From: Bacilli bacterium | Lineage (GTDB): Bacteria > Bacillota_I > Bacilli_A > RFN20 > CAG-826 | Assembly: GCA_045628045.1 (NCBI GenBank) | Contig: JAZQOV010000002.1 | Location: 106,826 to 170,825, forward strand | Length of the DNA stretch: 64,000 nucleotides | Direction: 5' to 3' | Shown here: piece after piece, positions 9,534-27,055 of the stretch | Layout of the letters: each line of letters starts with the position of its first letter | Numbering within the stretch: the first letter of the stretch is position 1 | Notes under the pieces: generated by a model | The model's database searches: none | Told to the model about the DNA's origin: nothing | What the model saw: the letters and a program-made list of their open reading frames with translations, nothing else | Translations under genes and position numbers: made by a program

Positions 9534-9908
9534 ATGAAAAAAGTCACTGTTAAAGAATTTATTTGGTACGCAGGTTGTGCGTTAGTTGCTGTCCTTGGTC
9601 TTATTGCAATTACCTTTGGTATTGTTGGCTACTATATGCCATCAACTGCAGAAACAGGCAACTTTGTTGAAGTCTTTGAAAATAAGATTCACTTTGAATT
9701 AAGATGGGCTGGATTAATCGCAGTTGCGGCAGCAGTTGTTGTCTTCATTATTTGCTTACTTGTTAATGCAAAGAAAGCAGACAGAGACGTTGAAAAGAAA
9801 CTTCGTCGTGAACAAAGAATTGCAGCAAGTGCTAATAGCACAATTGAAGTTAAGAAGGCTGTTGAGGTTATTGAAGAAGCTCCAGCTGAAGAGCAAAAAG
9901 CTCAATAA
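9534..9908 (+). CDS. Small 2-TM membrane protein
   Basis: Two hydrophobic segments and a charged C-terminal tail. Confidence 0.7.
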   Translation: MKKVTVKEFIWYAGCALVAVLGLIAITFGIVGYYMPSTAETGNFVEVFENKIHFELRWAGLIAVAAAVVVFIICLLVNAKKADRDVEKKLRREQRIAASANSTIEVKKAVEVIEEAPAEEQKAQ

Positions 9909-9930
9909 TTACTTCGAAAAATTAAAAATC

Positions 9931-9960
9931 AAAAAGTGTCAATTTGGCACTTTTTCTTTT
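9931..9960 (+). terminator. Intrinsic terminator at the core/accessory boundary
   Basis: aaaaagtgtca-att-tggcactttttctttt. Confidence 0.7.
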
Positions 9961-9991
9961 ACTTGCGAATTACCTTTGGTATAATTCAGTT

Positions 9992-11251
9992 ATGACCTTA
10001 AAAGAAGTTCGCAAGTTAAAACATATAACTCAAGAAGAAGCCGCTTCTATTTTAGAGGTTCCTTTAAGAACATATAAAAGATACGAGAATGATCCAAAAT
10101 ATTTTGAATCATATAAATATGAGGCTGCAGTTTTAAAACTTAAAAATTATAAAGGTAAAACAAAGAAAACAAGAATTAAAATAAATAAAGATAATCTACT
10201 TATTGTAGGCGCGGGATTTGTAGGTTCTGCGTGCGGAGAAGTTTATTCAAAAAGATTTGATATTACTTTTGTGGATATTGATGAAAATAAGCTTCAATCT
10301 CTTAAGGGCAAATATAAAGTCTCAAATAGTATTGAAAAGATAAAAGAAATCTCAAATGTTTTACTTTGCCTTCCTACTGATTATGATGAGGAAACAAAAA
10401 CATATAAGACAGATGCTATTGAAAGCTCAATTGAGTCAGTTTTAAAAGTTAATCCAAACGCATTAATTATTGTTAAATCTACAGTTGCTGTTGGATACAC
10501 AAATTACCTTTCAGAAAAGTTCAATCATCCAATTTATTTTATGCCAGAATTTTTAAGAGAAAAATATGCGGTGGAAGATGCAAAAAGACCGATTAGGTTA
10601 CTTGTTGGCGCAGACAAAATAACCGGGAATTTACGAAAATTTTCAGAAAATATCGAGAAATCTCTTGATATTCCAATGAGGACAAGTTTTGTTTCAAATA
10701 AAGAAGCTGAAGCAATTAAATTATTTTCAAATTCGTATCTTGCAATGCGTGTTTCTTTCTTTAATGAATTAGATCAATTTGCAATGGAAGAAGGCATGAA
10801 TTCTAAGGCTATTATTTCCTCACTAGGCTTAGATGATAGAATTGGTGATTCTTACAATAATCCAAGCTACTGTTATAGTGGTTATTGTCTTCCAAAAGAT
10901 GTCAAAGTTCTAGGTGGCCAAACTGTTGGCACTCTTCTTAAAGCTATTGATAAATCAAATGCTGATAGGAAGAGGTCAATTGTAAACAGCATCATTTTTA
11001 AAGCTTATGAATTATCAAAAGATCCTGTTATTGGAGTTTATAAAACAGATTTTTCTAAAGAAAGACACATTGATAGCCTTTCTGAAATTCATGAACTTTT
11101 AAAGAAACATAGAATTAAGACATTACTTTATACTGGCAAAGATGAATCTTTAGAGGAGTTCGCTAATAAATCAACTCTCATTATTTGTGAGAAAATGTCA
11201 AAAGAACTTCTTGAGTATAAAAATAAAGTATACACACGTAACATAAAATAA
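9992..11251 (+). CDS. ugd: XRE-HTH fused to a UDP-glucose 6-dehydrogenase-like domain
   Basis: N-term TQEEAA..LRTYKRYE; VGAGFVG, KSTV, PEFLRE, EAEAIKLFSN, NNPS..YSGYCLPKD; TGgTATAAT-N6-ATG start. Confidence 0.85.
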   Translation: MTLKEVRKLKHITQEEAASILEVPLRTYKRYENDPKYFESYKYEAAVLKLKNYKGKTKKTRIKINKDNLLIVGAGFVGSACGEVYSKRFDITFVDIDENKLQSLKGKYKVSNSIEKIKEISNVLLCLPTDYDEETKTYKTDAIESSIESVLKVNPNALIIVKSTVAVGYTNYLSEKFNHPIYFMPEFLREKYAVEDAKRPIRLLVGADKITGNLRKFSENIEKSLDIPMRTSFVSNKEAEAIKLFSNSYLAMRVSFFNELDQFAMEEGMNSKAIISSLGLDDRIGDSYNNPSYCYSGYCLPKDVKVLGGQTVGTLLKAIDKSNADRKRSIVNSIIFKAYELSKDPVIGVYKTDFSKERHIDSLSEIHELLKKHRIKTLLYTGKDESLEEFANKSTLIICEKMSKELLEYKNKVYTRNIK

Positions 11252-11342
11252 ATTAATAGTTCGACAAAATGTGCAATTCTTGCAGTTTTTCTTTACTTTT
11301 TTCTTTAATACTATACTATGTATAACAAAGAGAGGTGCAATT

Positions 11343-12536
11343 ATGACATTAAAAGAAACTCGCAAAAATTGCAAATTAACACAAGAAGAAGCCGCAAAAG
11401 TAGTCGGAACTTCCTTAAGAACTTATGTTGCTTATGAAAAAGATGAAGCAAAAGCTGATCATTTAAAACTCACAAGAATGATTGAAATCTTAAATGAATA
11501 TGCAGCAAAAGATACATCAATCTTAAAAGACAAGGTCTTATTAATTACTGGTGGTACCGGTTCATTTGGCCACGCTGTAGTTGATAGATTCTTAAATACT
11601 GAGATTAAAGAAATCAGAATTCTTTCACGTGATGAAAAGAAACAAGATGATATGAGAAAGGCATACAACAATGAAAAACTTAAATTCTACATTGGTGATG
11701 TCCGTAACTTATCAAGCATTGTAGATGCATTCAAGGGTGTTGACTACGTTTTCTCTGCAGCAGCACTTAAACAAGTTCCATCATGTGAATTCTATCCAAT
11801 GGAAGCTGTCAGAACTAATGTTATTGGTTCAGATAACGTTATTACTGCATGTGTTCAAAACCATGTTAAGAAAGCAATCTTCTTATCAACGGATAAGGCA
11901 GCATATCCAATTAACGCTATGGGTATTTCAAAAGCTTTAATGGAAAAGAATGTTGTCGCAAGATCAAGACAACTTCTCAAAGATGATACTGTTTTATGTT
12001 TAACACGTTATGGAAACGTTATGGCCTCACGTGGTTCAGTTATTCCTCTATTCCTTCAACAAATTCATGATGGAAAACCAATCACAATCACAAATCCAGA
12101 AATGACAAGATTTATGATGACACTCGATGATGCTGTCGATTTAGTCCTTTACGCCTTTGAACACGGTGAACAAGGTGACTTATTCGTCCAAAAGGCTCCT
12201 GCTGCCACAATTGAAACACTTGCTAAAGCAGTTATTAATTTAACAGGATCAAAAACTGGTATTTCATATATTGGAACACGTCATGGTGAAAAGTTATATG
12301 AAACTTTAGTCACTCAAGAAGAAATGTTACGTGCAGAAGACATGGGTAACTTCTTTAGAGTGTGCGCAGATAATAGAAACCTTAACTACGATAAATACTT
12401 TACCAAAGGTAATAAGAAGTTAAATATTGGTGATTCATACACATCACATAACACTGGTAGACTTGATGTTAAAGGAATGGAAAAACTCCTTAAGAAACTT
12501 GAACTTTTTGGTGGACCAGTTAAACAACACGAATAA
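11343..12536 (+). CDS. fnlA: XRE-HTH fused to UDP-GlcNAc 4,6-dehydratase/5-epimerase (FnlA/CapE)
   Basis: N-term TQEEAA..SLRTYVAYE; ITGGTGSFG, SRDEKKQDDMR, AALKQVPSCEFYP, RYGNVMASRGSVIP; GAGGTG RBS. Confidence 0.92.
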   Translation: MTLKETRKNCKLTQEEAAKVVGTSLRTYVAYEKDEAKADHLKLTRMIEILNEYAAKDTSILKDKVLLITGGTGSFGHAVVDRFLNTEIKEIRILSRDEKKQDDMRKAYNNEKLKFYIGDVRNLSSIVDAFKGVDYVFSAAALKQVPSCEFYPMEAVRTNVIGSDNVITACVQNHVKKAIFLSTDKAAYPINAMGISKALMEKNVVARSRQLLKDDTVLCLTRYGNVMASRGSVIPLFLQQIHDGKPITITNPEMTRFMMTLDDAVDLVLYAFEHGEQGDLFVQKAPAATIETLAKAVINLTGSKTGISYIGTRHGEKLYETLVTQEEMLRAEDMGNFFRVCADNRNLNYDKYFTKGNKKLNIGDSYTSHNTGRLDVKGMEKLLKKLELFGGPVKQHE

Positions 12537-12599
12537 AATTCGAAAATCAAAATACGAAAAATTTGCGTATTAAAAAATGAAAAAGCGCAAAATAAGATT

Positions 12600-13700
12600 A
12601 TGAAAGTTTTAGTTACAGGATCAAATGGTTTTATTGGAAAACACATGACCAAAGCCTTATTAAAGGCTGGTTATGAGGTTTTCCCATACGATATTGATAA
12701 AACAGAAGAAGACTTAGTTAATTATATTAATGAGACTGATTTTGTTGTTCATTTAGCAGGTATTAATCGACCACTTACTACTGAAGAATTTTATAATGGG
12801 AACACTAACTTCACTAAAAAGGTAGTGGATTTAATAAAAGAAAGTGGTCGAAATACTCCTATAATCATGTCTAGCTCTATTCAAGCAGCATTAGATAATG
12901 ATTATGGAAAATCTAAAAAGATGGGAGAAGACTTCTTATTTAAGTCTGGACTTCCTGTCTTTGTATTTAGACTTGCTAATGTATTCGGAAAGTGGTGTAG
13001 ACCAAACTACAATAGCGCGGCTGCTACATTTATGTATAACATAGCGCACAATCTTCCTATTGAGATTAGAGATAGAAATTACGTTGTCCATTATAACTAT
13101 GTCATTGACATTGTTAATACATTCTTAGAATGCATAAAAGGAAACATTAAGCCTTCAAAAGAAGTGTTATCTGTTTCTCCAGTTCACGATTGTTCACTTG
13201 GCACTTTAGCGGACACTCTTACCTACTTTAAAAACACTGTGGAATCAGATGAACACTTACCTCTTATTAAAAATGAGTTTGAGTTTAAGTTATTTGTCTC
13301 TTTCATGGATTATCTTTCTGAGGAAGGCTATTCCTTTAACTTCGCGGAAGATGCACGTGGATCATTTGAAGAAATATATAAATCAAAAAAATATGGTCAA
13401 ATTTCACTAAATACATCTTTCCCTGGAATCACTAAAGGTGGTCATTATCACACTTACAAAAATGAAATATTCATGACCGTTAAAGGTGATTGTGTTACAA
13501 GACTTAGAAAGATTGGAACCTCCGAAATACTTGAATATCCTCAACATGGAAAAGATTCAACAAGGGTTAAAATCATTCCAGAATACACTCACGATATTAA
13601 AAATGTTGGAAGTGAAGAATCAGTTACTATAATGTGGATTTCTGAAGTTTACTCTGATAAGACTCCAGACACATTTAGAGAAGACGTCGATATTAAATAA
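12600..13700 (+). CDS. fnlB: UDP-L-FucNAc pathway reductase/epimerase (FnlB/CapF), SDR plus cupin
   Basis: VTGSNGFIG, HLAGINRP, YGKSK, NVFGKWCRPNYNS, DARGSF, GITKGGHYH. Confidence 0.9.
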   Translation: MKVLVTGSNGFIGKHMTKALLKAGYEVFPYDIDKTEEDLVNYINETDFVVHLAGINRPLTTEEFYNGNTNFTKKVVDLIKESGRNTPIIMSSSIQAALDNDYGKSKKMGEDFLFKSGLPVFVFRLANVFGKWCRPNYNSAAATFMYNIAHNLPIEIRDRNYVVHYNYVIDIVNTFLECIKGNIKPSKEVLSVSPVHDCSLGTLADTLTYFKNTVESDEHLPLIKNEFEFKLFVSFMDYLSEEGYSFNFAEDARGSFEEIYKSKKYGQISLNTSFPGITKGGHYHTYKNEIFMTVKGDCVTRLRKIGTSEILEYPQHGKDSTRVKIIPEYTHDIKNVGSEESVTIMWISEVYSDKTPDTFREDVDIK

Positions 13701-13719
13701 TAAATATAGGAAAAAGATA

Positions 13720-13747
13720 AAAGCACTGGGAATTCCCGGTGTTTTTC
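13720..13747 (+). terminator. Intrinsic terminator after fnlB
   Basis: aagcactggg-aatt-cccggtgttttt. Confidence 0.75.
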
Positions 13748-13881
13748 ATAATCTTTTGCCTATATTTACATAATTTTCTCGTATTACAAAATGTGTTGAC
13801 TCTTCTAAATAATATAGTTGTCCCTAGTAGATAGAGCTCATCTATTAGGAACACTTAATATTAAGAAAGGAAAATCAAATT

Positions 13882-14091
13882 ATGTTTGTATTACTTAAAC
13901 TTATGGGATGCGTAGTATGGATCACTGCAATTATTCTTGCATTTGTCTTTATTGGAAAATCTGTTAGCGCATTTCGTAATGAAGATACTACTGGTTCAAA
14001 AGTAGGATGGATCTTGGCAACAATTGCTAACTTAATAATTGGTGCTGGTATTGGATTACTTTTCTACCAAGTAGCAGCACTTATTAAGTAG
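13882..14091 (+). CDS. Small 2-TM membrane protein
   Basis: AAGAAAGGA RBS, two hydrophobic helices. Confidence 0.7.
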   Translation: MFVLLKLMGCVVWITAIILAFVFIGKSVSAFRNEDTTGSKVGWILATIANLIIGAGIGLLFYQVAALIK

Positions 14092-14118
14092 TTATAAAAC
14101 TTTTGGAGGTAAGAAAAT

Positions 14119-14361
14119 ATGAAAACAGCCAGAAGATTTTATAAAGCGATTGCTTGCATTGTGGCTATGTTATTTATCGCAACACTAGTGTTATACATAA
14201 TCTTAATGATTAGGTCATTCACAAGAGGTGTTGATGGACTAACTGCAGGCTTTCTAGTAGTTGGTATTATCGCATTACTTATCGTTGTGCCTACACTTGC
14301 TAACTTTTTTATGGGAAGAGGCTGCAAGTGCGATAAATACCATCTAAATCAAAAAGAATAA
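14119..14361 (+). CDS. Small 2-TM membrane protein
   Basis: GGAGGT RBS, two hydrophobic helices; followed by terminator ggacac-atccgt-gtgtcctttt (~14386-14407). Confidence 0.7.
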   Translation: MKTARRFYKAIACIVAMLFIATLVLYIILMIRSFTRGVDGLTAGFLVVGIIALLIVVPTLANFFMGRGCKCDKYHLNQKE

Positions 14362-14540
14362 CTCACCCTCCCGAGTTTATCTTATGGACACATCCGTGTG
14401 TCCTTTTCTTTTGTTTTTGTCGCATTTGTCGCAACAATTTGAAGTATTACTAATACGAAAATTTAATCATGTCGTATAAATTGCGACACAAAACAACAGA
14501 AAATATTGCAAAATTATGACAAATGCCATAAACTTTAGGC

Positions 14541-15863
14541 ATGGAAAAATTAATATCACAAAGAAAAGACCTTGGACTTACTCAAGGCGAAGCCGCAAAG
14601 GCACTTGGAGTTTCACTTCGTACATATCAAAGATATGAGAGTGAAGGAACTCTTGATGAAACAAAATTAAATAAGATCTGTGCGGATCTAAAAATGAAAT
14701 GTGGCAAAGTCACATATAAAGGATTTTTAGACAATGGAAAACTCAAACTTTTAATTATTGTTGGAACAAGACCAGAAATCATTCGTCTTGCTGCAGTAAT
14801 AAATAAATGTAGAGATTACTTTGATGTCATTTTAGCGCATACAGGTCAAAACTATGATTACAATCTTAATGGTGTTTTCTTTAAAGACCTTGGAATCAAA
14901 GATCCAGATGTTTACTTAAACGCAGTTGGAAAAGATCTTGGGGAAACCATGGGAAATATCATTGCAAGATCATATGAGCTTATGGTGGAGATTAAACCAG
15001 ACGCAGTTTTGGTTCTTGGAGACACAAATTCATGTCTTTCAGTAATTGGAGCAAAACGTCTTCATATTCCAATCTTCCATATGGAAGCTGGAAATAGATG
15101 CAAAGATGAATGTCTTCCAGAAGAAACAAACAGAAGAATTGTTGATATTATCTCTGATGTTAACCTCGCATATTCTGAGCATGCACGCAGATATCTCGCG
15201 GATACAGGACTTCCAAAAGAAAGAACTTATGTTACAGGTTCACCAATGGCGGAAGTTCTCACCAATAACATTAAACAAATTGAATCAAGTGATATTTTGA
15301 CTCGCTTGAATCTAAAAAAAGGAAAATACATTCTTCTTTCCGCACATCGTGAGGAAAATATTGATACAGAGAAAAACTTCTTGTCCTTGTTTAACGCTAT
15401 TAACAAGATGGCAGAGATTTACGATATGCCAATCTTGTATTCATGCCATCCAAGAAGTAAGAAAAGACTTGAATCATCAAAGTTTAAACTTGATGAAAGA
15501 GTCATCATGCATGAACCACTTGGATTCCATGATTACAATAACTTACAAATGAATGCTTTCTGTGTTGTATCTGATTCAGGTACTCTTCCAGAAGAATCAA
15601 GCTTCTACGCAAGTATTGGTAAGCCAATTGCGGCAGTTTGTATTAGAACATCCACTGAAAGACCAGAAGCTTTAGATGATGCTTGCTTCGTTTTAGCGGG
15701 TATTGATGAAAAGAATCTTCTTCAAGCAGTGGAAGTAGCAATCAAAAACAAAGCTGGATGTCATCCAGTAGATAATTACGTAGACACGAACGTATCAGAC
15801 AAAGTTGTTAAGTTAATACAATCTTATGTTGGTGTTGTTAATAAAATGGTGTGGAGAAAATAA
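14541..15863 (+). CDS. fnlC: XRE-HTH fused to UDP-N-acetylhexosamine 2-epimerase (FnlC/CapG)
   Basis: N-term TQGEAA..SLRTYQRYE; VGTRPEIIRL, HTGQNYD, LGDTNS, HMEAGNRC, SDSGT, TERPE. Confidence 0.9.
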   Translation: MEKLISQRKDLGLTQGEAAKALGVSLRTYQRYESEGTLDETKLNKICADLKMKCGKVTYKGFLDNGKLKLLIIVGTRPEIIRLAAVINKCRDYFDVILAHTGQNYDYNLNGVFFKDLGIKDPDVYLNAVGKDLGETMGNIIARSYELMVEIKPDAVLVLGDTNSCLSVIGAKRLHIPIFHMEAGNRCKDECLPEETNRRIVDIISDVNLAYSEHARRYLADTGLPKERTYVTGSPMAEVLTNNIKQIESSDILTRLNLKKGKYILLSAHREENIDTEKNFLSLFNAINKMAEIYDMPILYSCHPRSKKRLESSKFKLDERVIMHEPLGFHDYNNLQMNAFCVVSDSGTLPEESSFYASIGKPIAAVCIRTSTERPEALDDACFVLAGIDEKNLLQAVEVAIKNKAGCHPVDNYVDTNVSDKVVKLIQSYVGVVNKMVWRK

Positions 15864-15994
15864 TCCACACCTTTTTTATAATGTTGAAATAGTTTTTTGC
15901 CAATAGACCGAATAGGTTGTATTGGTGAATTTTAATAAAACTCTTTCATATTATGAATACATATGCTATCATATGTTTGCAAAAGGAATCAGTT

Positions 15995-16450
15995 ATGGCA
16001 TTTAATCAAAGAGAATACACAAACGATTACAACAAAAATACATATAAAATGTATCCTTTTAGGGTGAAGCAAAACTCTACCTCAGTTATTGAGAAGCTTA
16101 AATCTGTGCCAAGTATGAACGCATATGTTCTCTCACTAATTGAAAATGACATTAATCCAGGTGTATTAACTCTTAAGATGATAAAAGATCGTATTTTGCC
16201 TGTGTTAAATAAGCATAACATTAACGAGGTTTATTTGTTTGGGAGCTATGCTCGTGGAGAAGCAAATAGGGATAGCGATTTAGATATATATTGTGAAAAA
16301 GGTGATATAAAGTCATTCATTGATCAAGAAATGCTTGAAGATGAGCTTAAAAACGCATTAGGGAAGGATGTTGATATTGTTTTTATTGGATCCAAGATGG
16401 ATGATTTCTTTAAATCACAATTAGAAGGAGATAAAATTAGAATATGTTAA
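15995..16450 (+). CDS. Minimal nucleotidyltransferase antitoxin (MntA-like) with N-terminal RHH-like extension
   Basis: LFGSYARGEA..DSDLD and KDVDIV motifs; AAGGA RBS. Confidence 0.85.
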   Translation: MAFNQREYTNDYNKNTYKMYPFRVKQNSTSVIEKLKSVPSMNAYVLSLIENDINPGVLTLKMIKDRILPVLNKHNINEVYLFGSYARGEANRDSDLDIYCEKGDIKSFIDQEMLEDELKNALGKDVDIVFIGSKMDDFFKSQLEGDKIRIC

Positions 16451-16788
16451 CAATTAAAGAACAAGGCTTATTGCTCGGAATAATAAAACACTGTGATAAA
16501 ATTCTTGAAAAGATTAATAGAATTACAAGAGTTCAATTTGATGAAGACGAGGATGTTATTCAGATTGTCTGCTTTAATATTTTGCAAATTGGAGAACTTG
16601 TAAAACATTTTGATGTTTCTTTCACAAGCAAATTTAATGAAGTCCCATGGAGTTTAATTGCACGCATGAGAGATAAAGTCGCTCATGGATATGGAACAAT
16701 TGATATTGATATAGTGTGGGGAACCGCAACAAAAGATATATCTTCTTTAAAAGCCTATTGTGAAAAGATTCTTAAGGAAAATATATAA
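16444..16788 (+). CDS. HEPN RNase toxin (HepT/DUF86)
   Basis: IGELVK, VPW..IARMRDKVAHGY (RxxxxH), IDIDIVW; overlaps the MNT gene. Confidence 0.88.
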   Translation: MLTIKEQGLLLGIIKHCDKILEKINRITRVQFDEDEDVIQIVCFNILQIGELVKHFDVSFTSKFNEVPWSLIARMRDKVAHGYGTIDIDIVWGTATKDISSLKAYCEKILKENI

Positions 16789-18046: not shown

Positions 18047-18598
18047 ATGATTTACACAACGAAACAACTTCTTAAAAAACACAAAAACAACACAAGTATT
18101 AACAGAATGGAGAAATCCGGAAAACTTTTTAGGGTTGCTCAGGGTGTTTATTCTGACGAACAAACTAATGTTGCGGATTTAGAAAGCATATTTCTTGTGT
18201 ATAAAAATGCTATTTTAACTAACGAAAGTGCATTTGCCTTTTATGAATTAACCGACAACATTCCTGAAAAGTACTCAATAGTAACTCCACTTAAGTCACA
18301 TAGAATTAGCTTTAAAGGTGTTGAGCAAAGCTATATGCAAGATTCAATTTTAAAAATTGGATTAACTAAAGCAAAAACAGAGTATGGATATATTAATATA
18401 TATGACAAAGAAAGATTACTTGTTGAATTGTTTAGACTCCGCAACAAGTTTTCTTATGAGCTTTACAAAGAAGTAGTGGCAAATTATAGAAAACTTGCTA
18501 TAGAAAATAAAATAGATTTTCTTAAGGTTTTTAAATATTGCGATAAGTTCGCATATGGCAAGACGATAAGAAAGATTATTGAGGAGGTAATCATATGA
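18047..18598 (+). CDS. abiEi: Type IV TA antitoxin AbiEi family
   Basis: GKLFRVAQGVY, ESAFAFYELTD.IP, IYDKERLLVE. Confidence 0.85.
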   Translation: MIYTTKQLLKKHKNNTSINRMEKSGKLFRVAQGVYSDEQTNVADLESIFLVYKNAILTNESAFAFYELTDNIPEKYSIVTPLKSHRISFKGVEQSYMQDSILKIGLTKAKTEYGYINIYDKERLLVELFRLRNKFSYELYKEVVANYRKLAIENKIDFLKVFKYCDKFAYGKTIRKIIEEVII

Positions 18599-19401
18599 AA
18601 ACAATCAGTGAACTTGTAAAAGATAAAATAAATCTTTTTAATATGAATAGAGTTGAGGCAGAGAGCTATGTTTGCCAAGAAATTATAATCAATAAAATTG
18701 CCAAATCTGAGCTTGTTGATAGAACATTCCTAAAGGGTGGTGTTGTGTTGTTTAACATGTCAAAGAATGAACGCCGCACAACAAGAGATATTGATTTTGA
18801 TTTAGCACACTACGATATATCCACAGAAGAATCTATGAAAAACTTGGTTTACATGTTAAATAAAAGAGACTCTGAATACGTTGTTACCTACATTAAAAGT
18901 GATCAGCTACATCAAGACGATTATAAAGGCAGAAGACTTTATCTCAAAGTGTCTGATAAAAGTGCTACATTAAAAATTACGATTGATGTGGGTGTTCACA
19001 CTTTATTTGCAATTAATCAACTTGATTCAATTTTTACATTTAATAATGACAATAACAAAGTAGTGGTTAAAGTGAACCCACCTGAGCAAATGATAGCAGA
19101 GAAACTTTATTCTTTAGCAAAACACACTATAGTGTCACAAAGATATCGTGATCTTTATGATGTATATTACCTTCTAAAGAACACTAAAGTTGAAAAGAAG
19201 GTAGTTCGTCAATGTTTTGAATTGCTTTTAATTAATAATATGCATGGTTTTAATGATTTGAGTGATGTTATCTCTAGAATTGATGAAACCCTCTCAAATG
19301 AAGTGTTTAAAGAAAGAACTGAAAATGCTTCTAAGAAATGGATTGATATTGACTATCTTACTTTAAAAGAAACAATTCTCAATTTGTTATATAACATCTA
19401 A
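18595..19401 (+). CDS. abiEii: Type IV TA toxin AbiEii nucleotidyltransferase
   Basis: FLKGG, RTTRDIDF, EQMIAEK, RYRDLYD. Confidence 0.9.
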   Translation: MKTISELVKDKINLFNMNRVEAESYVCQEIIINKIAKSELVDRTFLKGGVVLFNMSKNERRTTRDIDFDLAHYDISTEESMKNLVYMLNKRDSEYVVTYIKSDQLHQDDYKGRRLYLKVSDKSATLKITIDVGVHTLFAINQLDSIFTFNNDNNKVVVKVNPPEQMIAEKLYSLAKHTIVSQRYRDLYDVYYLLKNTKVEKKVVRQCFELLLINNMHGFNDLSDVISRIDETLSNEVFKERTENASKKWIDIDYLTLKETILNLLYNI

Positions 19402-19408
19402 TAACTTT

Positions 19409-19522
19409 AAAGATAACACCTCTTAAGCATTGAACGTAAGTTATAAGTGAAATGCTAAGGTGTTTTCTTTTATCTCTTTTCTTGATAGAGAAGCGTAGCA
19501 ATTTCTCGTATGACAAGAAAAG
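19409..19522 (+). repeat. Spacer repeat R3 (hairpin A plus hairpin B)
   Basis: aaagataacacctcttaagcattgaacgtaagttataagtgaaatgctaaggtgttttctttt plus ttttcttgatagagaagcgtagcaatttctcgtatgacaagaaaa. Confidence 0.92.
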
Positions 19523-19547
19523 CCTCAATTTAATATATAGAAATTTA

Positions 19548-19705
19548 TTTACTTAATGAAGACGTTTGTTAATGTAAGTATAGAGTTCACCCATGATAGT
19601 TAATGACTTCGCCTAGTGGGAACTTTTTTATTTACTATTTAGTTTTTTCAAATATAATGTAAATAGCAGGACATGAGCGAATTAAGTTTCGAGGGGCCTG
19701 CTTTT
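19548..19705 (+). ncRNA. Two tandem candidate small-RNA units (promoter, hairpin, U-tract)
   Basis: TTTACT-N16-TAATGT then agttc-accca...tgggaact-tttt; TTTACT-N16-TATAAT then agcagg...cctgct-ttt; no ORF. Confidence 0.4.
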
Positions 19706-19790
19706 AATTTACTTTATTTCCGATATTTTCCGTTTTTTGTCTGTTTTTGAAAGAGAAACATTAGCAAATTCTCGTATAACAAAAAAGATG

Positions 19791-20600
19791 TTAAATTTTG
19801 ATTCCTGAAATGTCTAAGAAATTATCGATTGAGAATCCTGGCATGTAATTACATGTGGATATGTCCGTTCCAAGTTTGTTAAACGACTCCCCAAAATGAT
19901 ATGCCTTATCATCAACAAACAAATATCTATCGTGAAACTTATCAACCTTTATTACCTTATATTTGTCTGATTCAAATGATTCGTTCTTTGGATGAGTAAT
20001 TACCACAACCTTTGCTGGGCTGTGTAATAAAATTTCATCAAATGTGTGATCAAAATAGTTATCAATGATTACTATTAATTTTTTAGCACTTTTCAATATT
20101 TCTTCTAACATAAACAAGGCATCAATACGATTGGCTTCTTTTAGTGTTAAGGATTTGTTTTGGAAATCTTTAATTTCGTAAATTTGATTTTGAAGATCAA
20201 TAATTTTTTCTTTGCATTCTAAGCAAGAAAAGTTGGGTTTTGCAAAAATGTATTGTTTTAAAACATAATTTGCCCATTGTCTAAATAACGTTCCTCTCTT
20301 TCCGTTCACTCTATAGCCCACAGATAAGATAACATCCAGGTTATAAAGGTCAATTTCTCTAGAGACGTTTCTTTCACCTTCTAATTGAACAGTTGCATTT
20401 TTTGCAACAGTTGAAATTCTTAATAGTTCGTTGCTGTTATAAATATTATTTATGTGTCTAGAAATTGTTGATTTATTCTTTTCGAAAAGAGCAGCAATAT
20501 CATTCAATGAAAGCCATACAGTATCTTCCGTTGGAGAAACATTAACTGGCAATGAAAAGTCTCCATCTTTGAATGTTAAGATTTCAAATTTTTTGTCCAT
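19791..20600 (-). CDS. RhuM-like DNA-binding protein with C-terminal PLD-like domain
   Basis: TVWLS...IAALF, YNLDVILSVGYRVNGKRG..FRQWA; C-term IIDNY, FHDRYLFVD..YHFGES. Confidence 0.8.
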   Translation of the reverse strand: MDKKFEILTFKDGDFSLPVNVSPTEDTVWLSLNDIAALFEKNKSTISRHINNIYNSNELLRISTVAKNATVQLEGERNVSREIDLYNLDVILSVGYRVNGKRGTLFRQWANYVLKQYIFAKPNFSCLECKEKIIDLQNQIYEIKDFQNKSLTLKEANRIDALFMLEEILKSAKKLIVIIDNYFDHTFDEILLHSPAKVVVITHPKNESFESDKYKVIKVDKFHDRYLFVDDKAYHFGESFNKLGTDISTCNYMPGFSIDNFLDISGIKI

Positions 20601-20773
20601 TTTAGGTTCCTCCTTATATTAAAAATAACAATCTTTTAATCGAACAAGATTGATGCGGTTTTTGCATCTGTGTAAATTATAATATGCACGCATTGAAAAG
20701 ACAAGCATAAATTGAAAATATTTTATTTATTTTTTGCATAATGTTAAAATGATGCAGTAAGGGGAAAATAGGT

Positions 20774-21106
20774 ATGGATAAATTAGAGGAAGAAATTTCA
20801 GAACGTATTAAAGAAATGATGGAAAAGCGTAAGGTCACTCAAAGTGATCTTGCTAGTGAGCTTGGAGTGCACCAATATGACATTTCACGCATGTTAAACG
20901 GCAAGCCTTTTCCATCTATTTCTCAATTAAAATTGATAGCGAACTATCTTGATTGTTCTTTGTATTATCTAATTGGAATACAAGAAGAATCATATCGTGA
21001 GCTATCACCTGAAACTAGAAAGATAGCTAATGCATATCAATGCGCTAATGAAACCATTAAAGCAGTAGTAGATCTGGTACTCACAAATAAAAAGATAAGT
21101 AAATAA
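20774..21106 (+). CDS. XRE-family HTH transcriptional regulator
   Basis: TQSDLASELGV....ISRM..G..P....L..IA.YL.CSL.YL. Confidence 0.88.
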   Translation: MDKLEEEISERIKEMMEKRKVTQSDLASELGVHQYDISRMLNGKPFPSISQLKLIANYLDCSLYYLIGIQEESYRELSPETRKIANAYQCANETIKAVVDLVLTNKKISK

Positions 21107-21171
21107 AAAAGATAACACCTGATTAAGCATTGAACGTAATTTATAAGTGAAATGCTAAGGTGTTTTCTTTT
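21107..21171 (+). repeat. Spacer repeat R4 (hairpin A only)
   Basis: aaaagataacacctgattaagcattgaacgtaatttataagtgaaatgctaaggtgttttctttt immediately after the stop codon. Confidence 0.92.
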
Positions 21172-21228
21172 GCTATATATGATAAAAGTTATAATATATT
21201 TATAATTTAGTAAAGGCACTTTATTAAT

Positions 21229-22413
21229 ATGGTTAATTTAATTAGAAGAATATTTATTAAGAATTACAAAGACATTAATGATCCTATTGTACGTGAGAAG
21301 CACGGCACAGTAGCATCAATATTTGGAATGGTAATGAATGTTATCTTATTTGCGATTAAATTTGTTATTGGTTTAATTGCTTCATCAATGTCAATTATTT
21401 CTGATGCTTTAAATAACTTAACAGACCTTTTTAGCAACATCGCTAGTCTGGTTGGTTTTAAAATTGCAAATAAACCTGCAGATAAAAAACATCCTTATGG
21501 TCATGAAAGAGTGGAATACATTACTGGAATGATAATTTCATTCATCATCATTGCTGTTGGTATTGTGCTTGGATACACTGCAGTGAACAAATTAATCACC
21601 AAAGATGTCGTAACTACATTCTCTATTTGGTCATTTGTCATTCTTGGCGTATCAATATTTGGCAAGATCTTGCTTGGATTATTTAACAAAGGAATGGGAA
21701 AAGCAATTAACTCAGTTTCTTTAAAAGCAAGTATGCAAGATTCATTTAATGACGCAATATCGACATCACTTGTTTTAATTGCCGCTATTATTTCCTACTT
21801 TGTAGGTGAATCAGTGTGGTGGCTTGATCCTGTTATATCAATAGCAATTGGTGGTTTTATTGTTTATTCGGGAATTAAGCTCGTTTTTGAAACAGCTTCT
21901 CCATTAATTGGACTTTCTCCAGACACTGACTTTGTTAAAGCGGTGGTGAATGATGTACTTTCATTTAAAGGAGCACTTGGAATTCATGATATCGTGTGTC
22001 ACTCATATGGCCCTACTAAGAAGTTCATAACACTTCATGTCGAGGTTGATGGATATGAAGATGTTATGAAACTTCACGATATGATTGATAACATTGAAGA
22101 ATGCATCGCTAAAAAATATAACTGTGAAATCACAATTCACATGGATCCAATAGACACTAAAAATAAAGAAATCCCTGTTTTAAAAGAAAAAATAGAAGAT
22201 ATTCTTAAACATATCTCACAGGAGATAACATTCCATGACTTACGCCTTGTGAATGGCCCAAGTCACACGAATGTGTTATTTGATATCGTTATACCTCCGG
22301 TTAAAGACATTAATAAAGATGAAGTCATTAATGCTTTAATTAAAGGCGTTAAAGAAATAAACCCTAAATATAACTTAGTGATTAAAGTAGATAACTCATA
22401 CACCCATGGATAA
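21229..22413 (+). CDS. Cation diffusion facilitator family transporter
   Basis: SDALNNLTD, KPADKKHPYGHERVEY, DSFND, GIHD...H.YGP. Confidence 0.92.
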   Translation: MVNLIRRIFIKNYKDINDPIVREKHGTVASIFGMVMNVILFAIKFVIGLIASSMSIISDALNNLTDLFSNIASLVGFKIANKPADKKHPYGHERVEYITGMIISFIIIAVGIVLGYTAVNKLITKDVVTTFSIWSFVILGVSIFGKILLGLFNKGMGKAINSVSLKASMQDSFNDAISTSLVLIAAIISYFVGESVWWLDPVISIAIGGFIVYSGIKLVFETASPLIGLSPDTDFVKAVVNDVLSFKGALGIHDIVCHSYGPTKKFITLHVEVDGYEDVMKLHDMIDNIEECIAKKYNCEITIHMDPIDTKNKEIPVLKEKIEDILKHISQEITFHDLRLVNGPSHTNVLFDIVIPPVKDINKDEVINALIKGVKEINPKYNLVIKVDNSYTHG

Positions 22414-22414
22414 C

Positions 22415-22526
22415 AAGAAAACACCTCTAAAGCATTAAACAAAATTCATAAGTGAAATGCTAGGTGTTTTCTTTTATCTTTTTTCTTGATAGAGAAGCGT
22501 AGCAAGTTCTCGTAGATCGAGAAAAG
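22415..22526 (+). repeat. Spacer repeat R5 (hairpin A plus hairpin B)
   Basis: aagaaaacacctctaaagcatt...aagtgaaatgctaggtgttttctttt plus module B. Confidence 0.9.
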
Positions 22527-22735
22527 CCGACATTTAGTAGCCTTATATAGGGAATATTTCAAAATAACTTGTTGTTATAGGTTTTTTCCTATATTCAACA
22601 TCATGTTTTGTTATTTTATTTTTTTCTTATTGGAACGAACAATATAGGTGAGGAAGGGAAGTAAAATGTTGTTAGACTTCTCGTGAAGAATTGCTTCTCT
22701 CTCCTCACTTAAAAAAGAAAGGAAAATAACAATAA

Positions 22736-23152
22736 ATGAAATTCTTAAGATGTAAGAAATGTGGTCAGATCGTCGGTGTTGTAAAAGACACGGGGGTCCC
22801 AGTTATTTGCTGTGGTGAGACAATGGAAGAACTCATCCCTCATGTTGATGAAAAGGGATTAAGTGAGAAACACATTCCAGTGTACGCAGTAAAGAAAGGC
22901 AAATGCATCGCCAAAATAGGTATGATCCCTCACCCAATGACAGATGATCACTATATTGAATGGGTCGCACTCGTCACAAACAAGGGGAACCAAAGAAAAG
23001 AACTTGAACCTGGTAAATCCCCTCGCGCAGAATTTTCTCTCGATGAAGACGAGGTTGTAGAGGAAATCTACGCGTATTGCAATCTCCATCAGCTTTGGAA
23101 ACTTGATTTAAAGAAAAACAAAGACTGTGGATGCAATATCAAAACAAAATAG
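22736..23152 (+). CDS. dfx: Desulfoferrodoxin / superoxide reductase
   Basis: CKKCG...CCG, EKHIP, HPM...HYIEW, YAYCNLH. Confidence 0.92.
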   Translation: MKFLRCKKCGQIVGVVKDTGVPVICCGETMEELIPHVDEKGLSEKHIPVYAVKKGKCIAKIGMIPHPMTDDHYIEWVALVTNKGNQRKELEPGKSPRAEFSLDEDEVVEEIYAYCNLHQLWKLDLKKNKDCGCNIKTK

Positions 23153-23328
23153 TTCAAGTTTTATATACATAGATTTTCTCTCCTTAAGTGAACCGTTCCT
23201 CTTATCTATTACCCTCGTAGGAGGACGGTTCACCTAGGAGATAAGTGGTGAAAACTAACCAGAGTGAACGTACATCGTAGTGAACTCACATACTTCACCA
23301 CCTGACAAAAAGGAAAGGAAGATAACTC

Positions 23329-24363
23329 ATGAAAAGAAACGTAATTAAAGCATTAGTATATGACTCCAAAGGATTCGTTGAAGAATTTTTCGAGATTGCT
23401 AACAAAGGAAGAATTAAGTTTAGTTACACTAGTGATAAGCTCAATGCTAACACTGTTAAAACAGCAGAAAGCTACGACACGATTGTGGCATTTGTTAACG
23501 ACACTATAGACAAAAGCGTAATAGACGCACTAGTAAAACAAGGAAAGAAAGCAATCTTCTTGAGAAGCAGCGGATTTAATAATGTTGATCTTAATTACAT
23601 TGATGGGAAATTTAAAGTATTTAGAGTTCCTGCCTATTCACCAGAAGCAGTAGCGGAACACGCCTTTGCGCTAATACAAACTTCAAATAGAAGGATACAT
23701 AAAGCTTATATTAGAACTAGAGAGTTCAATTTCTCCTTAGACGGGTTGATAGGGAATAATCTAAATAATAAAACCATCGGAATTATTGGAACTGGGAAAA
23801 TAGGGCGAGTCATGATTGATATCGCTAATGGATATAAAATGAATGTAATTGCCTATGATCCATACCCAGTTCCTGATCCAACTAACCTTAGTTACGTTTC
23901 TCTTCCTGAGTTACTTTCTAGAAGTGACATTATTTCACTACATTGTCCTTTAATTAGTGACACCAAGTACTTGTTAAATAAGGAAACCTTAGCGCTCACT
24001 AAGAAAGGCGTAATGATTGTGAACACTTCTAGAGGAGGCCTTATTGATTCTAGAGCGCTCCTAGATGCGATCAAATCTCGTCATGTTTCGAGTGCATGTT
24101 TAGATGTCTACGAAGAAGAAACAAATATCTTTTTTGAAGATAAGTCAAATCACATTCTAGATGATGAAGTACTGAGAGATTTAATTTCCATGCCAAATGT
24201 GATTGTAACTTCTCATCAAGGCTTCCTAACTCATGAAGCTTTAGAAAATATTGCTAACACTGTTATTAGTAACATCATCAGTTTCTTTGATGGTACCCCT
24301 AGAACTGAAAATGAAGTTATTTTAAGTGGTAGTAGCAAACAAAATGAAAGGAAATCAAAATGA
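23329..24363 (+). CDS. ldhA: D-lactate dehydrogenase (D-2-hydroxyacid dehydrogenase family)
   Basis: FVND, GFNNVD, VPAYSPEAVAEH, GTGKIG, SLHCP, NTSRG, LDVYEEE, TSHQGF. Confidence 0.88.
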   Translation: MKRNVIKALVYDSKGFVEEFFEIANKGRIKFSYTSDKLNANTVKTAESYDTIVAFVNDTIDKSVIDALVKQGKKAIFLRSSGFNNVDLNYIDGKFKVFRVPAYSPEAVAEHAFALIQTSNRRIHKAYIRTREFNFSLDGLIGNNLNNKTIGIIGTGKIGRVMIDIANGYKMNVIAYDPYPVPDPTNLSYVSLPELLSRSDIISLHCPLISDTKYLLNKETLALTKKGVMIVNTSRGGLIDSRALLDAIKSRHVSSACLDVYEEETNIFFEDKSNHILDDEVLRDLISMPNVIVTSHQGFLTHEALENIANTVISNIISFFDGTPRTENEVILSGSSKQNERKSK

Positions 24364-24602
24364 GTAAAAGACAAAGAGCAAGGTATTTTAGATTTATGGG
24401 GTTTGTAACATGCATTGTATCAATCGCTATGATTGTTGGTCTTGTGATCACCATTGTTGGTCAATTCAAAGATGCTGTAAAAGCATGGCCAATCATCGCT
24501 AACTTCTTAAATATCTTAGCAGTACTTGGAGTAGGCTTAGGACTTACTAACTTATTCTATTCTCATGCTTGTGTATTAGATGATGAATACTGTGCTAGAT
24601 AA
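24360..24602 (+). CDS. Small 2-TM membrane protein
   Basis: GAAAGGA RBS, translationally coupled to ldhA; resembles the 14119 ORF. Confidence 0.7.
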   Translation: MSKRQRARYFRFMGFVTCIVSIAMIVGLVITIVGQFKDAVKAWPIIANFLNILAVLGVGLGLTNLFYSHACVLDDEYCAR

Positions 24603-24647
24603 TTACCTATGTGATCCAGATGAAGATTCACATGAATTAGATTATTA

Positions 24648-24762
24648 ATAAAGAGAACACCTCTTCAGCATTGAACGTAATTTATAAGTGAAATGCTAGG
24701 TGTTTTCTTTTATCTCCTTTCTTGATAGAGAAGTGTTGCAAGTTCTCGTATAGCAAGAAAAG
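24648..24762 (+). repeat. Spacer repeat R6 (hairpin A plus hairpin B)
   Basis: aaagagaacacctcttcagcattgaacgtaatttataagtgaaatgctaggtgttttctttt plus module B; followed by gtgaagtc...gacttcac hairpin (~24810-24838). Confidence 0.92.
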
Positions 24763-24898
24763 TGCCGCTGGAATAGGGTATATATGAGACTATTGATATA
24801 CGTCTCAATGTGAAGTCTATTTAGTCATACGACTTCACTTGTATATTGTTGAGAATTATAGAATAAAAGGTAGAATATAGGTAGAAAAGAGGCTGCTT

Positions 24899-26848
24899 AT
24901 GATAATATCGAATGAACTTATTAAATCTTATATAGAAATTATTAACAATCACAAAAGTAAAGTTGAGAGCATTGCAAACATGTTTGCTTCAAGTTCGTCT
25001 GAATTTAAGACTTTATTGCAAGAATATAACGATATTTGCAAACCCGATCCAAATTTTATTAATTTTAATTTTGAAAGATATCTTATTTTTTCTGAAAAAG
25101 TAAAAGATTTCAGTAAATATGTTTTAAACTTAAGTACATTTAATGAGATTATTGGTAGACTTGCTGAAACTGATCTTAGTAATGCTTATTACAAATTGAT
25201 TAAGCATTTCATTGAAACTTTAAAATCTAATGATTTTGATTACTGTTATGAGAATTCACTTAATTATAAAGCAGCTTCTGACACTGTCACAAAATTAAAT
25301 TGCATACTTAATTCTTTTAACAATAATATGACCGATTTTATTACCAATAATCAGAAAAATTTAGAACCAATATTTCTTTTTTACGATTTAAAAGAAATCA
25401 AAAACAATATAACTTTAATTGGAACTAATGGTTCTGGAAAAAGTAGGTTTTCTAGACAATTGTTAACGTTTAGTGACAATCCAAATTTCGTTGTTATTGC
25501 CGCCCAACATTTTTTGGGTTTTGAATTAGATGGAAAAGTAGATTTGAATGCTGGTGGAATTAATTTAGATGGTTATCAGAAAAGTGACAAGCTTAGCGTT
25601 AGTGCAAGCGATCAATTCTATCAAAAAGAATTTGGCGTTTTAATGAACAAACTGAGAAGCGAACATATTAGAGAAAGGTATACAAAAGGGGTCGTATCAA
25701 CAATTTTTAACAAAGTTAAAGAATTGTTTCATGAGTTAATACCAGCAAGAGAAATAGAATATGATTTTGACACTTCGAAGTTTTATGCTGTCCCACCCAA
25801 TGGTATTAAATATGATGTTAATAATATGAGTGATGGTGAAAAAAGCATTCTATTTTATATTCTTCATATTATATTTTCTGATGAGCATTCCTTTATAATT
25901 GTTGATGAACCTGAAAATCATCTTCATTCAGATATTTGCACAAGATTGTGGGATAAACTTGAAGAAATCAGACCAGACTCTATTTTTATTTACCTGTCTC
26001 ATAATATAGATTTTATTGCATCGCGCAAAAATTCAACGATTATTTGGAACAAAAAGTTCGATTATCCACAAAAATGGGATTTCGAATTACTAAAAGACAA
26101 TGAATTGCCAAAACAACTTTATTTAGAAATACTTGGAACAACGCCGCCTGTTTTGCTTTGCGAAGGCTGCAAGAATTCTAAAGACATTAAAGTATATGAG
26201 GAGTTATTTAGTGACTATAAAATTAGACCATGTTCAAGTTGCAACGATGTTAAAGAATATGTAAAAACAATAAAAAGATTAGATGTTTTTAAAAATAAAA
26301 CAGTGAATGGAATTATTGACTTAGATACACGAAACGAAAAAGAAGTTGAACATTGCGTTAGGGATGGAGTTTTTGTTTTGAATGTAGTTGAAATTGAAAA
26401 TCTTCTTTTTGTGCCAGAATTATTAGACAAAATATTTGATAAGTATTCTAGTGATGAACAGAAAAATAATTTTTTTGATTCCTTTTATAGTAAAGCAAGT
26501 GAAGAATTGCCAAGGATGGTAAATAGAACTTTAAAAGATTATTTCGTTAAGGATGTTCAAAGCAATGATAGGGACTCTTTTGCTGAACAGGTTAACACCA
26601 AATATAAAGCAATAAGTTTTGCTGACCAGGTAAGCGCGAAGAAAACTGAGCTTGAAAACGAATTTAGAGAGATTATTGAAACTAGAAATTATGATTGCGC
26701 GTTAAAGAAATTCGATTTCAAAAATCAACTCTATTATATAGGCGAATCAATTATAAGAGATTATTTAGAGAAAGCGGTCGATATTCTTCACTCTGATAAG
26801 GCTTTAGCTGATTTAATAAAAGCAAAGTATATCAGAACAAATATTTAA
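24899..26848 (+). CDS. ABC/AAA ATPase fused to a TOPRIM (DUF4435-like) domain; PARIS-fused/OLD-like defence protein
   Basis: Walker A GTNGSGKS, MSDGEK, VDEPENHLH, LSH; TOPRIM LLCEG and GIIDLD; EIEN. Confidence 0.8.
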   Translation: MIISNELIKSYIEIINNHKSKVESIANMFASSSSEFKTLLQEYNDICKPDPNFINFNFERYLIFSEKVKDFSKYVLNLSTFNEIIGRLAETDLSNAYYKLIKHFIETLKSNDFDYCYENSLNYKAASDTVTKLNCILNSFNNNMTDFITNNQKNLEPIFLFYDLKEIKNNITLIGTNGSGKSRFSRQLLTFSDNPNFVVIAAQHFLGFELDGKVDLNAGGINLDGYQKSDKLSVSASDQFYQKEFGVLMNKLRSEHIRERYTKGVVSTIFNKVKELFHELIPAREIEYDFDTSKFYAVPPNGIKYDVNNMSDGEKSILFYILHIIFSDEHSFIIVDEPENHLHSDICTRLWDKLEEIRPDSIFIYLSHNIDFIASRKNSTIIWNKKFDYPQKWDFELLKDNELPKQLYLEILGTTPPVLLCEGCKNSKDIKVYEELFSDYKIRPCSSCNDVKEYVKTIKRLDVFKNKTVNGIIDLDTRNEKEVEHCVRDGVFVLNVVEIENLLFVPELLDKIFDKYSSDEQKNNFFDSFYSKASEELPRMVNRTLKDYFVKDVQSNDRDSFAEQVNTKYKAISFADQVSAKKTELENEFREIIETRNYDCALKKFDFKNQLYYIGESIIRDYLEKAVDILHSDKALADLIKAKYIRTNI

Positions 26849-27055
26849 TTATTAGATATTATTTCCTTTAGTGGTTAATTATATTTGATATAAATATTGG
26901 TAGAGCCTGTTATTTAAATACTTAGAGATTAAGCACCATTTACATATGGTGCTTTATTTTCTCTTTTGCAAAAGAGTCGGTAATTAATGCTATTTCATTA
27001 CGTATTTATGAAGTGGCTATCTAGGTGAGATACGCCACATTGGTGAAGTCTATTT
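26844..27055 (+). repeat. Spacer repeat S1 (modular)
   Basis: ttaattattagatattatttcctttagtggttaattatatttgatataaatattggtagagcctg; collapsed T module ctcttttgcaaaagag; gtggc..gccac; closely matches S3. Confidence 0.9.

Follow-up and report, generated by a model that had tools for sequence, protein, structure and literature searches.

Related XRE helix-turn-helix domains on three UDP-sugar enzymes of a small Bacilli genome: candidate autoregulatory loops with a likely origin in antitoxin genes

In a window of 64,000 nucleotides (the whole stretch of DNA analysed here) from a Bacilli bacterium of the lineage Bacillota_I; Bacilli_A; RFN20; CAG-826 (assembly GCA_045628045.1, contig JAZQOV010000002.1, positions 106,826 to 170,825; source genome 1.07 Mb, 33% GC and 96% complete), three genes for UDP-sugar enzymes, encoding a Ugd-like protein, FnlA and FnlC, each begin with a related helix-turn-helix (HTH) domain of the XRE type. 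The explanation that we consider probable is that each protein binds a site of its own and represses its own gene, giving separate autoregulatory loops, with a cassette likely captured from genes in which the same HTH heads a nucleotidyltransferase (MNT) domain. In the mechanism proposed, a promoter-operator-HTH cassette of HEPN-MNT antitoxin genes would have been captured onto each enzyme gene; each protein, paired via the enzyme oligomer or via the HTH, would bind its own predicted site and, when bound, limit its own transcription, with fnlB following fnlA. This would leave three feedback loops, mostly separate from one another, that set the amounts of the enzymes of the UDP-N-acetyl-L-fucosamine (UDP-L-FucNAc) pathway, and decay would have turned the Ugd fusion into a regulator whose enzyme body is dead or impaired.

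The three fusions lie on the + strand within 6 kb. The Ugd-like open reading frame (ORF) at 9992..11251 (419 aa; Pfam and sequence comparison) joins an HTH at residues 1-56, with the recognition helix RTY-K-R-YE, to a degenerate UDP-glucose dehydrogenase (UGDH)-like domain (UDPG_MGDP_dh) from about residue 68; the FnlA ORF at 11343..12536 (397 aa; Pfam, structure alignment and the motif M193xxxK197) joins an HTH at residues 1-56 (helix RTY-V-A-YE) to a FnlA/CapE UDP-GlcNAc 4,6-dehydratase/5-epimerase (Polysacc_synt_2); and the FnlC ORF at 14541..15863 (440 aa; Pfam and the CapG structure 7ya2) joins an HTH at residues 1-55 (helix RTY-Q-R-YE) to a FnlC/CapG UDP-sugar 2-epimerase (Epimerase_2). 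An earlier reading of these letters by themselves, hereafter the sequence-only reading, had placed an HTH in frame at the start of all three and none on FnlB, and both observations stand: the three proteins begin as quoted there and match Pfam HTH_3 (PF01381) in frame with the enzyme domain at 24.8, 29.0 and 32.0 bits, respectively, against a curated cut-off of 23 bits, and the FnlB/CapF-like reductase-cupin (12600..13700, + strand), likely transcribed from the fnlA promoter judging by gene order, had no HTH match in the Pfam search. The three HTHs share 43-53% pairwise identity in alignments of 34-56 residues (E 1e-11 to 3e-9); a nearby XRE protein at 20774 matches them far more weakly (E ~0.02), and their profile, run against all ORFs of the genome, found nothing else above 17 bits.

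An assembly artefact, which the same reading had allowed for, is ruled out by the recurrence of the fusions in relatives and by the independent run X2, in which single contigs span 9700-11371, 11351-11777 and 13148-15142, and hence all three HTH-enzyme junctions; these contigs differ from the window by 1-3%, with no indel within the three genes. Among FnlA homologues, the best 120 of 1375 matches all cover the HTH and the junction, and 100 of those 120 are exactly 397 aa long. The FnlA fusion is found in most of the genus (in 22/24 genomes of the genus, with the alignment starting at residue 1) and in two other families of the same class. The Ugd fusion occurs in 5/37 genus genomes and at 17 loci overall, and the FnlC fusion is rare, with 3 among the 150 matches listed from 251 family genomes and 14 loci overall; unfused FnlC proteins exist at 85-90% identity. 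All three fusions also occur together in two further genomes, G008 and G017.

Predicted operators and promoters accompany each fused gene. Ahead of ugd, a predicted operator found with the Ugd-site model (GTGTCA-ATT-TGGCAC, a 5-N3-5 palindrome at 9936..9950) lies 7 bp 5' of the -35 box of a predicted sigma-70-type promoter (TTTACT-16-TATAAT with a TG, 10 of 12 matches; 9958..9985, + strand), which ends 6 nt before the ATG. At 26.8 bits this is the model's best match genome-wide, the next scoring 19.2; its 15-mer is identical in the genomes G008, G017 and G283, all of which have a separate hairpin, with a T-run, further 5'. Ahead of fnlA, predicted operator O1 (GTGCAA-TTC-TTGCAG, 11271..11285; 17.5 bits with the FnlA-site model, third in the genome overall and top among intergenic matches) lies just 5' of the -35 box of a putative promoter (TTTACT-16-TACTAT followed by the Shine-Dalgarno (SD) sequence GAGGTG; 11292..11337, + strand) that was seen by eye and falls under the scan threshold. 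A weaker candidate, TGCAA-TTA-TGACA at 11336..11348, runs across the SD sequence and start codon (FnlA model 6.5 bits, Ugd model 12.6), its right half being partly fixed by ATG-ACA, and a possible second operator, CGCAA-AAA-TTGCA in codons 7-11 (11361..11373, 5.5 bits), has counterparts at +18 in many other fused fnlA genes, where coding constraint applies too. For fnlC, four half-sites (TGTCGCA, TGTCGCA, TGTCGTA and TGCGACA; 14418..14488), each above 10 bits with a model of QR-type MNT sites, precede a putative promoter (TTGCAA-17-TAAACT, 6 nt before the ATG; 14506..14534, + strand), likewise seen by eye and under the scan threshold, whose spacer holds the near-palindrome TATGAC-AAAT-GCCATA (14515-14530, pair score 13.5). 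The FnlC site is less regular than the others, with a spacer of 2 or 3.

Across the collected loci, the sites go with the fusion and differ by class: TGCAA-N3-TTGCA at fnlA, TG[C/T/A]CA-N3-TGGCA (mostly TGYCA) at ugd, TAYGAC-type half-sites at fnlC, and several types at HTH-MNT genes. By one strict pattern, a 5-N3-5 site lies upstream of 17/17 fused ugd, 46/70 fused fnlA and 102/109 HTH-MNT genes, and upstream of no unfused gene (0/15 ugd, 0/44 fnlC, 0/1 fnlA); a GCAA-N3-TTGC palindrome falls within -130..+45 of 59 of the 66 fused fnlA genes scored. Weight matrices built without the window, applied at a threshold of >=14 bits and with own-class counts that include the training sites, separate the classes: the FnlA-site model finds 66/70 fused fnlA, 0/17 fused ugd and 0/13 fused fnlC, and the Ugd-site model 16/17 fused ugd, 1/70 fused fnlA and 0/13 fused fnlC. 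Strong QR half-sites, from a model trained on four QR-type MNT loci only, precede 13/13 fused fnlC (with five in the window), 2/44 unfused fnlC, 2/70 fnlA and 5/17 ugd. The claim of the sequence-only reading that the enzymes bind DNA and control their own genes thereby gains cognate sites at their own promoters, present at fused and rare or absent at unfused genes; the common operator that it invoked is not supported by the cross-scores, apart from an overlap between the FnlC and Ugd sites that makes some FnlC-Ugd cross-talk possible. Genome scans for a wider regulon gave no convincing further promoter; the second-best Ugd-type match of the genome, GGTGACAATTTGTCACC (G000:C6:29829, 19.2 bits), is intergenic and lies 174 bp before a 210-aa ORF.

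The differences between the sites follow two residues of the recognition helix. With the helix written as R-T-Y-a-b-Y-E, Arg at b is paired with C at half-site position 4, and other residues at b with A; for position 1, Gln at a is paired with C and Arg with G. The link between b and position 4 holds in 97/99 MNT rows. This rule was fixed first and then tried on another 76 MNT loci, drawn from many taxa, of which 14 had no site by the filter used; in the remainder position 4 was correct in 62/62 and position 1 in 58/62. For a Q-R helix the rule predicts CG.CA, which is seen in the four QR-type MNT loci. The window thus holds three settings, K-R (Ugd), V-A (FnlA) and Q-R (FnlC), and three sites. 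The shared recognition helix from which the sequence-only reading had drawn a common operator is therefore shared in part: the three HTHs are related, but the two variable residues of LRTYxxYE track different sites. As few independent changes underlie it, the conclusion that two helix residues predict the site is a guarded one.

The HTH appears to be translated and under purifying selection in all three fusions. The ratio of nonsynonymous to synonymous substitution rates (dN/dS) of the HTH is 0.26 for FnlA (98 pairs), 0.34 for FnlC (8 pairs) and 0.16 for Ugd (4 pairs), the pairs being non-independent, and the recognition helix is identical in 6/6 aligned FnlC proteins. An SD-like 4-mer precedes the HTH ATG in 65/70 fused fnlA genes; all 15 fused ugd genes encoding more than 380 aa and all 10 complete fused fnlC genes have no SD-like 4-mer and instead show TANNNT 5-8 nt before the ATG, a layout of the leaderless type. 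Translation from a start past the HTH, raised earlier as a possible objection, was examined and rejected: an SD-linked start in the linker occurs in 0/10 fnlC and 0/15 ugd, and the fnlA linker, which contains an ATG in 46/70 loci, has one with an SD-like 4-mer in only 5/70. The FnlA linker is conserved (dN/dS 0.16), and those of FnlC and Ugd are variable (mean identity 0.46 and 0.20). In the predicted FnlA structure, a four-helix N-terminal HTH unit (predicted local distance difference test score 84-92) is followed by an ordinary CapE body. Two metatranscriptome runs, sampled at ~2%, gave 0 reads and were too shallow to test expression.

In relatives, the same HTH mostly heads 152-163-aa nucleotidyltransferases. 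These HTH-MNT genes occur in Bacilli, Clostridia, spirochaetes and others, carry Polbeta and NTP_transf_2 domains (52-55 bits against the MntA model, cut-off 60) and look like HEPN-MNT antitoxins because 76 of 111 precede an ORF with R-X4-H (a loose pattern); 30 had no ORF found and 5 another ORF. At loci L262-L340 their operators are spaced 31-33 bp apart (about -102, -69 and -36 from the ATG), the last often being a half-site between -35 and -10. The three window fusions have no MNT domain by Pfam; however, the nearest HTH of another class is an MNT HTH for 67/70 FnlA, 16/17 Ugd and 14/14 FnlC fusions. In the protein tree the FnlA HTHs form one clade (100/97), the Ugd HTHs fall in four places and the FnlC HTHs cluster with two QR-type MNT HTHs (97/89; 96 by the Shimodaira-Hasegawa-like approximate likelihood-ratio test on DNA). 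Additionally, the 75 bp 5' of one fused fnlC align with a QR-type MNT promoter at a score of 52, compared with a shuffle maximum of 40 and with 35 for the next of 109 MNT promoters. At least three fusion events are needed for three unrelated enzymes, and three separate captures from MNT genes are likely, though not proven because approximately unbiased (AU) tests fail to reject a single clade; the direction would be from antitoxin to enzyme, since the MNT form has the wider range and diversity. That the fusion was acquired repeatedly, as first suggested, thus holds at the level of the fusion events and less securely at that of the HTHs.

Further members of this HTH subfamily are found at the start of a transketolase N-terminal domain, an AAA_14 protein and a 572-aa HTH-MNT-MarR protein (P0189; L342:1601-3340; L082:2592-4307), and an FnlA-type HTH sits on a glutamine synthetase (L021:9448-10998, Gln-synt_N and C) about 2 kb 3' of a fused fnlA. 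A search for longer HTH partners, made with an MNT-heavy query, returned mostly MNT fusions. Another XRE HTH, with the helix SQQAYGNYE, occurs on an M18 aminopeptidase in family genomes (L087, L090, L091, L092, L097).

As regards regulation, each fusion would bind DNA at its own site, and the enzyme oligomer would supply paired HTHs. We infer repression as the sign because of precedents among antitoxins, namely the MNT antitoxin of Shewanella SO_3165/SO_3166, which binds and represses its own promoter at palindromes near -10/-35 (PMC4621449), and the self-repressing XRE protein of the Streptococcus suis Xre-MNT pair (PMC8406773), and because some sites are located in the -35/-10 spacer or beyond the start.

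Several points weigh against this account. Binding and repression are both proposed from sequence; the window ugd site and fnlA O1 lie just 5' of the -35 box, so that the repressive sign is uncertain for ugd, and activation at these two sites, in the manner of C proteins, is possible. The FnlA site is not unique, with 10 genome matches at or above 15 bits, 8 of them within ORFs; the QR pair model gives all 17 ugd operators 10 or more; and the unfused fnlC genes sit mostly inside operons, which makes them a weak control. For the residue rule, the supported branches of the tree yield just 3 independent pairs (p 0.25 by sign test, not significant and underpowered), and about four held-out loci look like near-copies of training loci. 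As for the antitoxin origin, the MNT class contributes the most HTHs to the comparison, which biases the nearest-neighbour counts towards it, and the window's own fnlC and ugd promoters have a top match other than that QR-type MNT promoter. One clade of all enzyme-fused HTHs is unrejected by the AU test (p 0.075; p 0.45 on DNA), as is a clade of FnlA and FnlC (p 0.063; p 0.59, where the constrained tree scored higher), and the GlnA fusion nests in the FnlA HTH clade, which points to a hop of the HTH from enzyme to enzyme.

The enzyme bodies differ in condition. FnlA and FnlC look intact, whereas the claim that catalytic motifs are retained holds only in part for the Ugd-like protein. FnlA matches the fold of the short-chain dehydrogenases/reductases (E 1e-43), aligns structurally with the best CapE/WbjB chains at 61-65% identity and has M193 and K197 near-invariant among homologues, MxxxK being the catalytic motif of CapE (PMC3699295); its best NCBIfam model, TIGR04130, gives 533 bits, under the cut-off of 730, and its product is assigned from homology and the fnlB/fnlC context. 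FnlC is a full-length Epimerase_2 protein closest to CapG (7ya2, E 5.7e-138, residues 67-440) and passes TIGR00236 (230 bits, cut-off 210). In the Ugd-like body, with Streptococcus pyogenes numbering, Y10F, G257S, R327H and S329D replacements, the absence of K320 and a deletion of ~20 aa in the N-terminal domain are found; T118, E141, E145, K204, N208, C260 and D264 are kept. The body thus fails the list of invariant or near-invariant UGDH residues given in PMC4794789, and it scores 161.7 against TIGR03026 (cut-off 189.8). At least one of Y10, G257, K320 and R327 is lost in 8/17 fused and 0/15 unfused Ugd proteins, and among present genomes the Ugd fusions range from intact through decaying to truncated. 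The window copy, the only PF03721 gene found in its genome, has the longest branch (1.17), and 9 of the 15 strain differences listed in its gene are silent. We regard this domain as likely dead or impaired. In the degenerate Ugd clade of G008, G017 and G283, dN/dS is 0.05-0.08 for the HTH and 0.11-0.16 for the enzyme. There the fusion keeps the same chromosomal place (L027:5571-10742; L349; L350) and is followed after 62 bp not by fnlA but by aconitase-X-like, DUF126 and flavin oxidoreductase genes, which it may regulate.

A trigger enzyme is one that is catalytically active and whose regulation depends on substrate or ligand. The sequence-only reading had proposed such a system here, with precursor levels coupled to transcription; DNA binding would then change when the enzyme body takes up a UDP-sugar or NAD(P). 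This would add to the autoregulatory reading rather than replace it, and we hold it to be rather unlikely overall, the most plausible cases being FnlA and the decayed Ugd, the latter acting purely as a sensor. It is favoured by the constant length of FnlA homologues and the constrained FnlA linker, by the purifying selection on the degenerate Ugd bodies, by the CapE hexamer, whose interfaces shift with substrate and coenzyme (PMC3699295), and by the precedent of BzdR, in which an XRE HTH is joined to a dead enzyme serving as a sensor (PMC3602430). Set against these are the variable linkers of FnlC and Ugd and the occurrence of the same HTH on MNT, GlnA, transketolase N-terminal and AAA proteins, which suggests plug-in use. 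The window Ugd, moreover, is without residues that bind UDP-glucose and the NAD phosphates, and a working trigger enzyme is unlikely there because its domain is degenerate. Ligand gating would be plausible for FnlA (likely a hexamer) and, by analogy with BzdR, for the decayed Ugd.

That the cassette was kept for its promoter and start codon, the palindromes serving as terminators or as parts of the promoter and the HTH being no more than a tolerated tag, we consider improbable. The ugd site does double as a terminator-like match (9931-9955), and GRCGTC hairpins ~80 bp before many fused fnlC genes, which fit the predicted site and were not counted as operators, resemble terminators of this genus; the HTH dN/dS, furthermore, is ~2-8 times that of the enzyme parts. 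However, the FnlC recognition helix is invariant, the site is conserved in sequence beyond hairpin shape and tracks the helix residues, a separate terminator lies 5' of the same ugd site in three genomes, and the degenerate Ugd clade shows tighter constraint on the HTH than on the enzyme.

There is similarly little likelihood that one operator serves all three HTHs, or at least that FnlC and Ugd cross-bind. All the sites come from one family, the QR pair model gives 11.3 to the window ugd site and 11.3 to a site between fnlA and fnlB against 13.5 at fnlC, the fnlA site at -7 scores well with the Ugd model, and the terminator scan found no terminator between ugd and fnlA, so that read-through could link both. 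Besides the cross-scores and the scarcity of strong QR half-sites ahead of fnlA, it is opposed by the separate occurrence of the fusions and by the unrelated genes that follow the ugd fusion in G008, G017 and G283. A structural or oligomerizing HTH without a DNA role, as in the XRE-like domain of HppE, is very improbable, since cognate sites lie upstream of fused and not unfused genes and match the helix residues, and since the fold matches of the HTH model, among which HppE and MPnS appear, are without exception weak (E >= 0.046), with repressors and C proteins (C.EcoT38I, C.BclI) at the top.

Beyond the autoregulatory reading itself, a wider proposal is tentative but possible: HEPN-MNT antitoxin genes would be a mobile stock of autoregulators with specificities set by two helix residues, three of which were grafted onto one pathway in 6 kb as orthogonal loops, with at least one graft ligand-gated and the Ugd graft a BzdR-like sensor in the making.

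The neighbourhood of the three fusions consists of sugar-pathway and toxin-antitoxin genes. After fused fnlA, fnlB follows in 29/70 loci and fnlC in 40/70, mostly after a very short gap; the window's fnlA-fnlB gap of 63 bp is unusually long and contains a palindrome like TACGAA-AAAT-TTGCGTA at 12553-12569 (FnlA model 6.7 bits, QR model 11.3). A terminator-like hairpin lies 3' of fnlB (13719..13746, + strand) and another (14386..14403, + strand) parts fnlC from two small hydrophobic ORFs, 13882-14091 (69 aa) and 14119-14361 (80 aa), which sit between fnlB and fnlC and between the two terminators (both found by terminator scan) and have no Pfam match above cut-off. Immediately after fnlC comes an MNT (165 aa) and HepT-like pair (15953-16788), the N-terminal part of which is unlike the HTH studied here, and AbiEi/AbiEii, RhuM, AbiH and AAA-RloB genes follow from 18047 to 31059. 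A fourth XRE fusion, at 36385-37110 in a polysaccharide cluster, has an HTH from another subfamily and a C-terminal part with no Pfam match and a faint likeness to the window's RmlA-like protein (E 0.004), possibly a decayed sugar-nucleotide enzyme; the match of 17.4 bits to the Ugd-site model within its coding sequence, at 36461, is probably due to chance.

A literature search, confined largely to freely accessible papers, found no account of an XRE HTH fused to these sugar enzymes, and the parts of Makarova 2009 (PMC2701414) that were covered contain no XRE-MNT-to-enzyme transfer. What the analysis adds is the presence of three different sites in one locus, a rule predicting sites and the link to antitoxins. 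The change from enzyme to regulator is widely assumed, with few traceable cases; here, the likely donor, the transferred unit, fusions both recent and old, and enzymes at various stages of decay are all visible in genomes. If the two-residue rule holds in vitro, it would provide a small set of orthogonal repressor-operator pairs and make operators predictable for hundreds of HTH-MNT genes. The locus also offers a testable model for the control of surface-polysaccharide precursor genes in small-genome gut Bacilli.

The architecture is a variant of enzyme-repressor fusions. BirA, NadR and PutA are bifunctional enzyme-repressors or trigger enzymes that respond to metabolites and represent old, single fusions, and RbkR is grouped with bifunctional enzyme-repressors; in contrast to BirA, NadR and PutA, one HTH subfamily is found here on several unrelated enzymes with different sites. 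BzdR likewise has an N-terminal XRE HTH, a linker and an inactivated shikimate-kinase domain (PMC3602430), a state towards which the Ugd fusion seems en route; however, BzdR has a proven effector and a catabolic operon as its target, whereas FnlA and FnlC look active. The enzyme bodies are those of CapE/CapF/CapG of Staphylococcus aureus and WbjB/C/D (FnlA/B/C), which synthesize UDP-L-FucNAc (PMC3699295; PDB 3vvb, 4j2o, 7ya2), but the solved CapE and CapG proteins have no HTH and match only from residue 59-67 on, and in the window a terminator sets fnlC apart and the gene has a predicted promoter to itself. The C proteins of restriction-modification systems are also small XRE HTH proteins with palindromes just before their own gene and often leaderless mRNA (PMC2632904), a layout that, from sequence, fits ugd and fnlC and not fnlA; they are described there as stand-alone proteins that activate and then repress and typically lack a clear -10 box, whereas the window genes are fusions with a recognizable -10 box and no restriction genes nearby. 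In Streptococcus suis, an MNT-linked XRE protein binds and represses its own promoter, although the two are separate genes and the MNT is the toxin (PMC8406773). With respect to HEPN-MNT systems, SO_3165 is described as having no predicted DNA-binding domain and has dissimilar palindromes (PMC4621449), and the unit found here, joined to metabolic enzymes, is without MNT or toxin; nevertheless, its HTH and its family of sites are those of the HTH-MNT genes that precede R-X4-H ORFs.

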